The notes under the pieces are model-generated. The model was not told where the DNA came from and made no database searches. It saw only the letters and a program-made list of their open reading frames with translations. Below, piece by piece: positions 40,267 to 46,716 of a stretch of DNA of 64,000 nt (positions are counted from its first letter, which is position 1; each line of letters starts with the position of its first letter). Location: positions 11,709 through 75,708 of the forward strand of contig JAXMOL010000005.1 of NCBI GenBank assembly GCA_034669905.1, given 5' to 3'. The position numbers and the translations under genes were made by a program. The DNA comes from Candidatus Hydrogenedentota bacterium (GTDB lineage: Bacteria > Hydrogenedentota > Hydrogenedentia > Hydrogenedentales > JAEUWI01).

Positions 40267-41223
40267 ATGCGAACTCTTGCCATCGCCGCCCTGCTGGCGG
40301 CGGGACTTTCCCCCAACGCTGCGCTGGCCGAGCCGACCTTTGGCGAGCGCCTGGGGTGGAAGGCCGACGACCGAATTCTCATCCTCCACAACGATGACGT
40401 CGGCATGTCGCACGAAAGCAATCTCGGCACGATCGAAGGCTTCGAAGGCGGCCTCATGAACTCGAGTAGTACGATGATGCCCTGCTCCTGGGTCTTGGAA
40501 TGGCGCGACTACCTGTTGGAACACCCCGAGATCGACAACGGACTTCACCTGACCCTTACGTCGGAGTGGAAACACTACCGATGGCGCCCGGTGGCGGGCG
40601 CGTCGGTCGTCCCCGGTCTGGTAGATGAAGAAGGCTACATGCACCGCCGCGTGATGCAGACCATCACGAACGCCACGGCGGACGAAGTGGAGACCGAGAT
40701 TCGCGCCCAGATCGCCCTTGCGGAAAAGATGGGCCTGCCCATCACCCACCTGGATTCCCACATGGGCACGTTGTTTTATTCCAAGCCCTTCTTCGAACGC
40801 TACATCAAGGTGGGCATCGAAAAGCAGATTCCCATCATGCTGCCCAGCGGACGGGGCGAGGCCAAGACCGACGCCGAAAAAATGTTGCAGCCCCAGATCC
40901 GGGCGGCCGCCAAAGCGGTGTGGGATGGCGGTCTTCCGGTACTCGACTATCTTTTTACTTCCACCGCCGACACAGGTGATGCAAAAGAGATGACCGAGGC
41001 ACTGAAACAGCGAATTCGCGAGTTGGAACCGGGCATCACCCAGATTATCCTTCACGGAACGCGCCCCGGCTGTAACTTTCATGCCATCTCTGGCTCGGGG
41101 AAAAAGCGGAATGCCGAACTGGAAATGGTACTGAGCGAGGAAGTGAAGCAGCTTATTAAAGACGAAGGCATCATCATGACCACCTACCGCGAGCTCATGG
41201 AACGGCGTCAAGCGGTTAAGTAG
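40267..41223 (+). CDS. Secreted YdjC/ChbG-family carbohydrate deacetylase-like protein.
   Basis: Signal peptide 'MRTLAIAALLAAGLSPNAALA'. 'LILHNDDVGMSHESNLGTIEGFEGGLMNSSSTMMPC' matches the YdjC N-terminal 'ADDFG..xxxN.gI' region. 'NGLHLTLTSEW' matches the 'G.HLnLt' motif. Confidence 0.6.
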   Translation: MRTLAIAALLAAGLSPNAALAEPTFGERLGWKADDRILILHNDDVGMSHESNLGTIEGFEGGLMNSSSTMMPCSWVLEWRDYLLEHPEIDNGLHLTLTSEWKHYRWRPVAGASVVPGLVDEEGYMHRRVMQTITNATADEVETEIRAQIALAEKMGLPITHLDSHMGTLFYSKPFFERYIKVGIEKQIPIMLPSGRGEAKTDAEKMLQPQIRAAAKAVWDGGLPVLDYLFTSTADTGDAKEMTEALKQRIRELEPGITQIILHGTRPGCNFHAISGSGKKRNAELEMVLSEEVKQLIKDEGIIMTTYRELMERRQAVK

Positions 41224-41310
41224 GCCCCACACCAACATCACAGCATCAGGAACGCCCCATAAGCCTGACACGGCCTATGGGGCGTTTGTTTTTCTGATGA
41301 TATAGGTGAT

Positions 41311-44178: not shown

Positions 44179-44439
44179 GGTAATGTAAGCTCCTGAAAAG
44201 ATTGAGTTGTAGTGTAGCAATCCCAGACGGGCCTTTCCCACCTGCTGCGCGCGCTACCCGCCCGTTACGGCGGACCCGCTACCCTGCCCGTGCGCCGGGA
44301 GAAAAACCTGAGCCGCCAGTGCACCTCGGGCATTCCGCAAATAAAAACAAAGAAACGGCATCCCGTTGTAGAGACACCGTTTCTGAGTTTTTTCGTATCG
44401 AGTCAGACGGACCGCTACCTTGTGGTGCGAACAGCGACG

Positions 44440-46716
44440 TTAACGTATCGGCTCGCCATTGCTACGTACCGACAGGCCGTCCACGGCGACAATCGCGACG
44501 GGCACTCCTTCGGGCACGGTCAGTTGATAGCCAGTGGCCGGGTCGTAGTTTACGGTCATACGGCCAAGGGGGTGGGGCACGGTCAACGTCATCGCGGGCA
44601 AGCCTGCGATCTTCGCAGGTGCAAAGCGAACGGCTTCCCAACCCGGCGCTGCCGGCGTCAGACCCAGGACATGCTCCGCAATGAGATAGATGGGACTCGT
44701 GGCCCAGGGATGGCACCAACTCATGTTGCTCTTCTGGTCAGGACTCCACACTTCCAGGCACGTCGTGGCGCCCGCGCGAAGCATCTCGTTCCAGCTGTTC
44801 TTGTCATCATTGGTAAGCAGTGCGTAGCCCAGGTCCGGGGCGCCAGCACGGAAGCAGGCTTCAATCACATAGGACGCGATGTACACCCCACAACTCAAGC
44901 CTTTGCCCTTAATGAACGCAAGCATCCGGGCCGGATCGGCGCCCTTCGTCAGGCCGAAAGCCAGGGGAACGGCGTTGGCATGCAGAGAGCTGTGGGTCGA
45001 ACCCGGTCTATCCACATACAGGCCCGTTGCCGGATCGACGAGCAACGTTGCAAAGGCCTCGGCAACGCGGTCGGCCCGGGCCGTATAGGCACCGCTGTCC
45101 CTCCCCAGGAGGGCCTCCAGACGGGCGGCACACTGAAGTGCGCCATAGTAGAAACCGTTCAGCAAGGTATTGGGGGCGTCATTGCTGGGGTAGTCATAGC
45201 CATCACGCATATTACCCGGCCAATCGATCACCAGCCATTTCTCGGGTTTGTTCAAGCCCACCAGAAGTCCCGTTTCATTCTCATAACGGGCGTAGTAGGC
45301 AAAGAGTCCCGGAAACACATTGTCCACCATGGCTTCCAGGAAGGCACGGTCACCCGAGTGGTTGTAATAATACTCCAGCATCAAGGGATATTGGAGCGGA
45401 AACTCGGCGATTTCCTGCATAAAGTGACCTGGCGCGACCCCCATCATGCCCGGGTGAATCTTACAGGACTGATAAAACTCATAGAGTGCTTTTTTCGTCA
45501 AACTGGGGTCACCGGTGAGCCAGAGGTGAGACCGTGCCGCAATCACCGTGTCGCCCAGATACTGTCCCTTCTCCCGGGTCGGGCAGTCGACAAATCCTCC
45601 CTGAGAGCCCATCTGGATCGTATTCTTGCAGAGTGTGAAGATCTGTTCCAGGGACGTGTCGCTGGCGGTGAAGGTGCTCTCGGACGGATCAAAAGGATGA
45701 TGGCGAACCTCCACCCACAGCACGGGCTCTACCGGACTATCCAGGATTTCCATATAACGAAAAGCCCGATAGTCATAGAAGGGAATCACATCCACCTTCC
45801 CCGAAAGAACCGGCTTCTCTTCGTAGGTCATGTTTGCCCGCAACTTGTAGCGGACCCGACCATCGTCGTTGAGCTCCTCGCCATGGCGCACGGTGATTAC
45901 CTGGCCGGCCTCACCCTGCACCTGAACCCGGGTATGGCCAACGATTTCCGTACCGAAATCGTAAAACCAGGTGCCATCCTCCAGCCGTTTCGCGACCTTG
46001 GGCTGGACGGCATAGCGCTGCAACGGAGGGGTGACTTGTTCGATAAAGACATGATCCTGTCGCCCTACTGCCGGGGACACCCACGTACGCTCGTCAAATC
46101 CCACCTGCTCCCACCCCACTGGCATATGGCGCATGTCGATGTGCTCGAGGAACTGGGTGCTGTAGCCAATCGTATCTTCCCCGGGGAAGGCTTCCAGCGG
46201 CAAGACACGCCAGTTGTCATCGGTCTCGAAAATTTCGGTGGTCCCGTCCGCATAGGTCACCTCCAGCCGCAGGATGAAGCCTGACCGATTGTCGGCGCTA
46301 CCCCATACCCGGTTACGCAGGCCCTGATAATAGACGTGGCTGGCGAGGCAGTTCGTGCCGCCCTGGAGTGCCTTCGAAATCTCCAGCGCGTAGTAGGGGT
46401 AAGAAAAGTCATAGCCCCCTTCCGGTCCCTGAACAAGCGGGGTACCGTTCACACTGAGTTTATAGTAGTCATCACCCGTAACATAAAGTTGGGCAGAGGT
46501 TGGTTTTTCCCGGAGCGTGATTTCATCCCGCATCAGGGTGTGGATATTCTTGGGCCCCGATGCGGCGGGCGCCGGTTCTTTCGCACGAATCAGATAATTG
46601 ATAGTGGGCAGGTCCGCCATTCGCGGGTCCGACAGCCATTGGGCATCACCAAACACATCGGCACGAACGGAAAAAGTGACCAGGGTGGCCACAAGCAGGA
46701 TACTACGAATAATCAT
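44440..46716 (-). CDS. Secreted GH78-like alpha-L-rhamnosidase. Tandem paralog lacking the transpeptidase domain.
   Basis: Signal peptide 'MIIRSILLVATLVTFSVRADVFGDAQWL'. 'GGFVDCPTREKGQYLGDTVIAARS' and 'CGVYIASYVIEACFRAG'. Collinear similarity to 41311..44178 along the shared GH78 region. Confidence 0.7.
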   Translation of the reverse strand: MIIRSILLVATLVTFSVRADVFGDAQWLSDPRMADLPTINYLIRAKEPAPAASGPKNIHTLMRDEITLREKPTSAQLYVTGDDYYKLSVNGTPLVQGPEGGYDFSYPYYALEISKALQGGTNCLASHVYYQGLRNRVWGSADNRSGFILRLEVTYADGTTEIFETDDNWRVLPLEAFPGEDTIGYSTQFLEHIDMRHMPVGWEQVGFDERTWVSPAVGRQDHVFIEQVTPPLQRYAVQPKVAKRLEDGTWFYDFGTEIVGHTRVQVQGEAGQVITVRHGEELNDDGRVRYKLRANMTYEEKPVLSGKVDVIPFYDYRAFRYMEILDSPVEPVLWVEVRHHPFDPSESTFTASDTSLEQIFTLCKNTIQMGSQGGFVDCPTREKGQYLGDTVIAARSHLWLTGDPSLTKKALYEFYQSCKIHPGMMGVAPGHFMQEIAEFPLQYPLMLEYYYNHSGDRAFLEAMVDNVFPGLFAYYARYENETGLLVGLNKPEKWLVIDWPGNMRDGYDYPSNDAPNTLLNGFYYGALQCAARLEALLGRDSGAYTARADRVAEAFATLLVDPATGLYVDRPGSTHSSLHANAVPLAFGLTKGADPARMLAFIKGKGLSCGVYIASYVIEACFRAGAPDLGYALLTNDDKNSWNEMLRAGATTCLEVWSPDQKSNMSWCHPWATSPIYLIAEHVLGLTPAAPGWEAVRFAPAKIAGLPAMTLTVPHPLGRMTVNYDPATGYQLTVPEGVPVAIVAVDGLSVRSNGEPIR

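Follow-up and report, generated by a model that had tools for sequence, protein, structure and literature searches.

Bacterial alpha-L-rhamnosidases of glycoside hydrolase family 78 (GH78) follow an inverting mechanism with two catalytic glutamates, and enzymes such as SaRha78A from Streptomyces avermitilis (Protein Data Bank, PDB, entries 3W5M and 3W5N) and RhaB from Bacillus sp. GL1 (2OKX) are built from beta-sandwiches and an (alpha/alpha)6 barrel. The YkuD fold is known from the canonical L,D-transpeptidases, among them Bacillus subtilis YkuD (1Y7M), LdtMt1 and LdtMt2 of Mycobacterium tuberculosis and the Lpp-anchoring enzymes of the ErfK/YbiS type in Escherichia coli. A further YkuD enzyme, the L,D-carboxypeptidase ElsL (LdtK), which serves cell-wall recycling in Acinetobacter baumannii, converts the disaccharide-tetrapeptide to the tripeptide without acting on the pentapeptide, and the class named after it comprises leaderless, cytoplasmic, single-domain proteins of about 105-200 amino acids (PMC8649774). 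Here, we describe a gene, which we call B, from a 64,000-nucleotide stretch of a Candidatus Hydrogenedentota genome (contig JAXMOL010000005.1, positions 11,709 to 75,708, hereafter the window), the 955-residue product of which, unlike any solved or characterised GH78 enzyme, carries a YkuD domain. We propose, with moderate confidence and on the evidence of sequence comparison, that B is an exported bifunctional enzyme, combining a rhamnosidase with an L,D-carboxypeptidase or transpeptidase of peptidoglycan stem peptides.

An earlier reading of the letters alone (the sequence-only reading) had reported three open reading frames here, namely B, its paralog C and a YdjC-type gene, A, all of which we find at the coordinates it gave, and had called the fusion in B atypical. 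That description stands, as our literature search found GH78 together with YkuD in no paper, and no earlier description of the fusion, while public annotation of the fused proteins reads only "family 78 glycoside hydrolase" or "ErfK/SrfK". The features of B are as follows:

41311..44178, minus strand: gene B, GH78 alpha-L-rhamnosidase with C-terminal YkuD domain, 955 amino acids (open reading frame list, Pfam, homologs)
44125..44178, minus strand: signal-peptide-like N-terminus of B, MVRYVLIVVLLIAAPLWA (read from the sequence)
41926..43968, minus strand: GH78 module, residues 71-751, comprising an N-terminal beta-sandwich, a concanavalin-like domain, the (alpha/alpha)6 catalytic domain and a C-terminal beta-sandwich (Pfam, PDB, Foldseek)
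43015..43053, minus strand: GH78 catalytic motif D376-C-P-T-R-E381-K-G-Q-Y-L-G-D388 (alignment of 122 family members)
42214..42216, minus strand: E655, candidate catalytic base, within GATTCMEVW (invariant in 122 sequences)
41809..41925, minus strand: linker, residues 752-790 (AlphaFold2 model confidence, family alignment)
41341..41808, minus strand: ElsL-like YkuD domain, residues 791-946 (Pfam, NCBIfam, Foldseek, selection analysis)
41395..41460, minus strand: YkuD active-site motif H907-G-T-N...S920-H921-G-C923-V-R925-L-L-N928 (106 fused proteins)

The ATG at 44178 was preferred as the start codon over a GTG at 44241 (63 nucleotides upstream, which would give 976 residues), because the homologs are 955 residues long with full query coverage. 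The sequence motifs quoted in the sequence-only reading are located in B at residues 374-388 and about 609-625, and its HGT...SHGCVRL motif at residues 907-926.

Pfam, PDB sequence searching and fold comparison all agree on the GH78 assignment. In Pfam, B passes the cut-offs of Bac_rhamnosid6H (PF17389, E 1.4e-39), Bac_rhamnosid (PF05592, E 8.8e-15) and Bac_rhamnosid_N (PF08531, E 5.6e-14), together with a weak match to Bac_rhamnosid_C (PF17390; 19.6 bits vs a cut-off of 22.1). The PDB sequence search returned 3W5M (E 3e-30) and 2OKX (E 3e-27), and when the AlphaFold2 model of B, with a predicted local distance difference test (pLDDT) score of 93.6, was compared with solved structures by Foldseek, the top 11 PDB matches were all GH78 (E 9.6e-46 to 1.4e-22), with other six-hairpin families (GH94, GH65 and GH116) at 1e-12 or worse. 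The sequence matches and the Foldseek ranking together rule out another six-hairpin glycosidase family; on one of the two points at which the sequence-only reading had considered itself exposed, a better match to another (alpha/alpha)6 family, GH78 is the best match by both sequence and fold.

The acidic motif D-x-P-x-R-E...G-D is common to B, SaRha78A and RhaB, as is the second catalytic glutamate, although the identity of B to these two enzymes is only 18-23%, and the subfamily of B has GQY in this motif where other GH78 enzymes have GW. E381, D388 and E655 are invariant in the 122 aligned family members, and D376 is present in 121 of them. These four residues align with the catalytic motifs of RhaB and of SaRha78A (the ...dER.. 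motif in the latter), where we take the reference catalytic residues to be D567, E572, D579 and E841 of RhaB, and the segment around E655 lines up with "ttmwErw" of 3W5M and "attcwEmy" of 2OKX. E381 and E655 are the candidate catalytic glutamates of B.

Following the GH78 module, the linker is disordered at residues 757-764 (pLDDT < 50) and then forms a conserved helix, in which W781 (at about 41836-41838) is invariant in 106 fused proteins. The remainder of the protein is matched by Pfam YkuD (PF03734) at residues 791-946, with 74.0 bits vs a cut-off of 23.4 (E 2.4e-20, profile positions 4-146 of 146), such that the YkuD match that the sequence-only reading expected between residues of about 780 and 955 is present. 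The pattern H-x(12-17)-[ST]-H-G-C-x-R-x-x-N, with its cysteine nucleophile, is found in B, and among the 106 fused proteins H907, G908, T909, G922 and C923 are invariant, with R925 conserved in 102 and N928 in 105 of them. A model of this domain alone (pLDDT 95) retrieves only YkuD-fold L,D-transpeptidases among its top 50 Foldseek matches (E down to 3.6e-9), at TM-scores (template modelling scores) of only about 0.5 to solved enzymes; no close structure has been solved.

The best NCBIfam model for this domain is ElsL (NF040925; 118.3 bits, positions 8-162 of 164), with generic L,D-transpeptidase models scoring at most 33 bits. As 118.3 bits is below the cut-off of 270, we describe the domain as ElsL-like rather than as an ElsL ortholog, from which B also differs by sequence in localisation and architecture. 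What it has in common with ElsL is a compact single YkuD domain with the HGT...SHGC motif, here at the C-terminus of a larger protein, and what the fused family has in addition is the linker helix with W781, and Cys814. We note that Cys814 (at about 41737-41739) is conserved in at least 90% of the fused family, and that in stand-alone ElsL-like proteins both Cys814 and W781 are replaced or absent; these two residues may point to an interface between domains or to a disulfide in the periplasm.

The selection acting on each module was estimated as the ratio of nonsynonymous to synonymous substitution rates (dN/dS) of B against its 93%-identical ortholog at locus L001, giving 0.066 for GH78 and 0.019 for the YkuD core. 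Such strong purifying selection on both heads makes the case for two working active sites. Pairwise distances for the GH78 and YkuD parts are correlated across the family (r 0.57, Mantel p about 0.001), with nearly equal mean divergence (0.42 for GH78 and 0.41 for YkuD).

The origin of the fusion is best discussed together with the paralog C, which lies upstream of B on the same strand:

44440..46716, minus strand: gene C, GH78 paralog without YkuD, 758 amino acids (open reading frame list, Pfam)
44351..44384, minus strand: terminator-like hairpin between C and B, a 14-bp stem followed by a T-run (pattern scan, consensus match only)

B and C are collinear, with 70% identity over 757 residues, in agreement with the tandem paralogy originally described, and C terminates exactly where the linker of B begins. 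In Pfam, C has the same GH78 domain set as B and no YkuD, such that only the distal copy (41311..44178) extends into this domain, again as first read. Because of the terminator-like hairpin between them, the two paralogs are probably separate transcription units. We also observe that, relative to L001, synonymous divergence is uneven between these adjacent genes (dS 0.55 for B, and 0.29 in its YkuD part, vs 1.45 for C), which hints at recombination or gene conversion at this locus.

In a protein search, more than 100 clusters share the GH78-YkuD architecture, at about 945 residues and 47-93% identity to B, and every source name among them is Candidatus Hydrogenedentes or Hydrogenedentota. Among genomes sampled at one per GTDB species, about 37 loci have the fused form, including that of Ca. 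Hydrogenedens terephthalaticus, most of them titled Hydrogenedentota, and the nearest relative of the window (93%) is a Hydrogenedentota metagenome-assembled genome (MAG; L005). The Planctomycetes framing of the sequence-only reading does not hold, as the nearest genomes are Candidatus Hydrogenedentota MAGs. The DUF1559/N-methyl pilin-like genes that occur in the window may account for that assignment. Seven or eight MAGs titled "uncultured Nitrospirales/Nitrospiraceae" also carry the fused gene (L009, L011, L012, L016, L031, L038, L054 and L044), and because several of these have flanking genes in common with Hydrogenedentota loci, the Nitrospirales and Nitrospiraceae labels are probably wrong.

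Outside the Hydrogenedentota group, the GH78 subfamily is found only unfused, at 40-51% identity, in Omnitrophota, Lentisphaeria, Kiritimatiellia, a Rhodopirellula MAG, Paenibacillus, Clostridia and others. In the Firmicutes orthologs, the match starts at about residue 24 of B, which suggests that they have no signal peptide. In a neighbour-joining tree of the GH78 part, rooted with Firmicutes-type orthologs and with 150 bootstraps, the Hydrogenedentota sequences group together as sister to unfused sequences from Omnitrophota and the PVC (Planctomycetes-Verrucomicrobia-Chlamydiae) bacteria, and unfused Hydrogenedentota forms of 758-760 residues are nested among the fused ones at three places. 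The clade of C with the fused protein P0006 was recovered in all 150 bootstraps, as was that of P0107 with the fused P0038, and a third unfused clade within a fused group in 138-150; monophyly of all unfused forms was recovered in none (0/150).

Because unfused forms take up three or more separate positions among the fused ones, C is a tandem duplicate of a fused gene that later lost its YkuD domain. We searched for a YkuD remnant with tblastn and found none, either downstream of C or elsewhere in the window. A recent fusion of adjacent genes, the alternative that the sequence-only reading had left to be decided by a stop-codon remnant in the paralog, is excluded by the conservation of the architecture down to 47% identity, the nested position of the unfused forms and the lack of any such remnant. 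As the distances of the two modules correlate at equal divergence, these data fit a single ancestral fusion, with the modules inherited together and YkuD then lost at least three times from duplicates. The fusion would have a single origin close to where the Hydrogenedentota lineage of the GH78 subfamily begins, and both sites have been kept intact since.

As to function, we propose that B is exported via Sec and presents two active sites. Its GH78 head (the N-terminal 750 residues) would trim terminal alpha-L-rhamnose off periplasmic or extracellular glycans. The YkuD head (the C-terminal 165 residues) would use Cys923 as nucleophile, together with His907, to attack the L,D bond between the third residue and D-Ala4 of tetrapeptide stems or free muropeptides by way of a thioester acyl-enzyme, which would most likely be resolved by water, so that this head would act as an L,D-carboxypeptidase, turning tetrapeptide into tripeptide. 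What we infer in this scheme is export, the identity of the substrates, hydrolysis in preference to transfer, and any joint action of the two heads on a single substrate. A signal-peptide-like N-terminal segment, judged by eye from the sequence and not by a predictor, is present in A, B and C alike (with MIIRSILLVATLVTFSVRA and MRTLAIAALLAAGLSPNAALA in the other two proteins), and hydrophobic N-termini are found across the family.

Comparison with other YkuD proteins gives this proposal further context. The canonical L,D-transpeptidases resemble the C-terminal domain of B in fold, catalytic motif and export, but sequence similarity to them is confined to the last 45-90 residues, their TM-scores are as low as given above, and their usual partner domains (LysM, PG_binding and Ig-like) are absent from B; nor does its closest characterised relative, ElsL, imply transpeptidase activity. 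Csd6 of Helicobacter pylori and Pgp2 of Campylobacter jejuni are exported YkuD-fold enzymes that convert tetrapeptide to tripeptide, which is the activity we propose for B, in the same compartment. However, their sequence similarity to B is negligible (E 0.11 for Pgp2), neither is in the Foldseek top 50, and both carry NTF2-like domains rather than a glycosidase.

Relatives of the YkuD domain were collected by a HMMER scan of 1.84 billion representatives, with 3051 matches. After the fused family and its fragments, these are stand-alone proteins of 165-230 residues, collinear with and 42-50% identical to the YkuD domain of B, some leaderless like ElsL and others with signal peptides. The same clade is elsewhere fused to a Mur-ligase-family protein (P0212, P0193), to Amidase_3 (P0184) and to Peptidase_M23 (P0247), each at 46-50% identity and each, like B, pairing a small YkuD head with a second enzyme; one relative is fused to PGA_cap, the poly-gamma-glutamate capsule family (the list of clade fusions also includes P0181). 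Because the partners are a Mur ligase, Amidase_3 and M23, the clade is consistently tied to the processing of peptidoglycan peptides. From its Mur-ligase domains, the ligase may be Mpl, an enzyme that re-uses the tripeptide that an L,D-carboxypeptidase makes; if so, the YkuD-Mur ligase fusion would give Rosetta-stone-type support for recycling by carboxypeptidase and then ligase. Unlike GH78, these partners act directly on peptidoglycan. We know of no peptidoglycan substrate for GH78, and hence the Hydrogenedentota fusion is an oddity.

Several points weigh against the bifunctional reading of B. The NCBIfam score places the YkuD domain well under the ElsL cut-off, and ElsL is itself a cytoplasmic, leaderless, single-domain protein while B is, by sequence, an exported glycosidase of 955 residues, such that the carboxypeptidase activity of the YkuD head is an extrapolation by analogy; moreover, most YkuD proteins are transpeptidases. 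The fused family is known only from sequences and predicted structures, and the model of the whole of B has a predicted TM-score (pTM) of 0.79. Monophyly of the whole Hydrogenedentota clade was recovered in only 73 of the 150 bootstraps. The Firmicutes GH78 orthologs look like ordinary cytoplasmic catabolic enzymes beside AraC-family regulators. Finally, the open reading frames flanking the fused gene at 33 loci revealed no conserved neighbourhood that links it to peptidoglycan or rhamnose metabolism.

The strongest of the alternatives is that the two heads act on unrelated substrates, one as an ordinary periplasmic rhamnosidase on imported polysaccharide fragments and the other as a periplasmic L,D-carboxypeptidase or transpeptidase on the cell's own wall, and are fused merely for co-expression. 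We regard this as rather unlikely, although the genomic context is in line with it, in that neighbourhoods are variable and suggest no common pathway. The genes next to fused loci are mostly housekeeping (elongation factor P, EF-P; peptidyl-prolyl isomerase, PPIase; tRNA synthetase; polyprenyl synthase; malic enzyme), and no Pfam family recurs more than 3 times in the 99 open reading frames around the 33 loci. A conserved operon or polysaccharide-utilisation locus was rejected when tblastn of the window neighbours against 84 loci, de novo clustering of open reading frames and the Pfam tally returned clade-restricted neighbours only. Moreover, the repeated loss of YkuD with the GH78 duplicate intact indicates that GH78 can work alone, one unfused paralog lies amid polysaccharide-degradation genes (a sulfatase, a pectate-lyase-like protein and an SSF transporter), and the literature describes Hydrogenedentota as breaking down complex polysaccharides (PMC12555021, PMC10866078). 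This lifestyle suits a periplasmic rhamnosidase but leaves the fusion unexplained. What counts against mere co-export is that the fusion persists with the same linker helix at only 47% identity, that a fused copy is kept beside the unfused duplicate in the genomes sampled, and that the other fusion partners of the YkuD clade are cell-wall enzymes, so the nature of the partner appears to matter.

It is less likely again that, as the sequence-only reading suggested, the YkuD domain serves as a tether and not as a peptidoglycan-processing enzyme in its own right, holding the rhamnosidase on the sacculus either because it binds stem peptides or through a long-lived thioester with the third stem residue. 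B appears to be exported, its modules are joined by a flexible linker, and YkuD enzymes form a covalent acyl-enzyme with the stem peptide that serves as donor, all of which would suit a tether, as would the nearly invariant Cys814 and invariant W781, which stand-alone relatives lack and which mark the domain as specialised. Pure binding would, however, need neither an invariant H907 and C923 nor a dN/dS as low as that of the YkuD core, and ElsL is hydrolytic, not an anchoring transpeptidase. YkuD-mediated anchoring is known with a separate enzyme and substrate protein, and we know of no description of self-anchoring. That the YkuD domain acts on some other L,D- or D-amino-acid-containing peptide, glycopeptide or protein seems very improbable, since the PGA_cap fusion, the score under the ElsL cut-off and the low TM-scores to solved L,D-transpeptidases are set against a full YkuD motif, including R925 and N928, against a clade whose fusion partners are mostly peptidoglycan enzymes, and against the fact that we know of no YkuD enzyme with a donor substrate other than peptidoglycan.

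If the two heads of the proposed bifunctional enzyme do share a substrate, this could be wall material that carries rhamnose and is linked to peptidoglycan, whether from the cell itself or scavenged. Two more specific versions of this idea can be put forward, and only as an unlikely extension of the proposal. In one, Hydrogenedentota would have alpha-L-rhamnosylated peptidoglycan or an anchored rhamnan, with B trimming both sugar and stem peptide during maturation or turnover; in the other, B would dismantle the rhamnose-rich wall polymer-peptidoglycan of other bacteria, its YkuD acyl-enzyme docked on the stem peptide while GH78 works.

Turning to the neighbouring genes, the gene facing B is as follows:

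40267..41223, plus strand: gene A, YdjC-family protein, 318 amino acids (open reading frame list, Pfam)

A matches Pfam YdjC (PF04794) with 168 bits vs 29.7 (E 4.5e-49, profile positions 2-265 of 266), while its score with the NCBIfam carbohydrate deacetylase model is 118.7 bits vs a cut-off of 400, and it reaches the equivalog cut-off of none of the NCBIfam YdjC-type models; we thus describe it as a putative secreted carbohydrate deacetylase of the YdjC family. The sequence-only reading had A divergently encoded and part of a pathway with the rhamnosidase. A and B are in fact convergent, tail to tail, and a YdjC gene lies next to the fused gene at only 3 of about 35 fused loci scanned (L001, L006 and L007), and at L088, all four of which carry close relatives at least 68% identical. 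Taken with the lack of any Pfam family recurring more than 3 times nearby, this leaves such a pathway unsupported, and YdjC is a lineage-specific local neighbour only. The gene order at L006, L007 and L088 is PPIase, fused gene, YdjC, with no second copy, and that in the window, at L001 and on the TARA contig L089 is PPIase, unfused C, fused B. At L001 (8640-9794) and L089 (3657-4664), an extra unannotated open reading frame of 335-384 residues lies between the unfused and fused paralogs, which is absent from the window. L001 has a second open reading frame of 384 residues about 10 kb off (19637-20791), and the L001 pair may be a mobile element, if the two, which are equal in length, are copies.

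The clade-restricted neighbours of the fused gene include a secreted P-domain/Big_2 or CFI-box-CTERM protein, a multipass membrane protein, and a GH42-like protein accompanied by polyprenyl synthase and GT2; one genus also has an M23 peptidase and MurB nearby. In about 10 loci, the gene directly downstream encodes a secreted protein; both such proteins that were checked have a CFI-box-CTERM sorting domain (L010 10839-12098 and L054 10838-12115; NCBIfam E 1e-24 to 1e-28), and the one at L041 contains P-domain and Big_2 domains. The multipass membrane protein, which recurs upstream, and a recurring downstream protein of 620-820 residues have no Pfam or NCBIfam family, save for a weak GH42 segment in the latter. 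The Paenibacillus orthologs adjoin AraC-family regulator genes and once also sugar-acid catabolism genes, and a clue to the substrate from these cultured relatives was given up, as AraC-type neighbours are uninformative on specificity.

In the genus Hydrogenedens, the fused gene is divergent from efp (L004 9310-9876; L030; L034 7314-7880), and the encoded EF-P has an unusual PGNWRA loop where a modified Lys or Arg tip is usual. A link to EF-P rhamnosylation is unlikely, as the enzyme appears to be exported and this loop is not of the EarP type, which we take to be SGRNAA; the adjacency is probably coincidental.

Elsewhere in the window are SecA, a sulfatase, giant BACON/VWA proteins, a GH38-like giant protein, GDH and malic enzyme, none of them functionally linked to the fusion. 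At 34682-37195 and 37251-39845 (both minus strand), paralogous genes in tandem encode secreted proteins of 837 and 864 residues. Each is internally duplicated, contains EF-hand-type calcium motifs as well as long (GE)n linkers, and ends in a Pro-Gly-Cys segment, a hydrophobic helix and a basic tail that together look like a C-terminal sorting signal; relatives of this pair flank the fused gene at L001, L006, L007, L013 and L017. A 921-residue protein (24148-26913, plus strand) has a weak N-terminal match to PcRGLX, of the rhamnogalacturonan-lyase type, and a 1670-residue protein (28351-33363, minus strand) a weak C-terminal GH38 match, making them possible further glycan-active giants at 8-17 kb from the fusion. 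Four open reading frames, of 393, 572, 364 and 649 residues (53496-57624 and 10218-12167, minus strand), have no Pfam or NCBIfam family.

Taken together, B joins a glycoside hydrolase to a putative peptidoglycan stem-peptide enzyme, a combination of well-known families for which our literature search found no earlier description and that is kept under strong selection in many members of an uncultured phylum. With it, the ElsL class of YkuD carboxypeptidases, defined only recently, would come to include exported proteins of several domains, and the repeated loss of YkuD in duplicates provides a clean natural experiment. As B is predicted to be soluble, has a high-confidence model and is amenable to simple assays, the question of what its two heads do is directly testable. 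To our knowledge, no rhamnose-peptidoglycan connection of this kind has been described in Hydrogenedentota or in other Gram-negative-type bacteria; if the two heads share a substrate, B would point to one, either in the organism's own envelope or in the wall debris that it may use as food.

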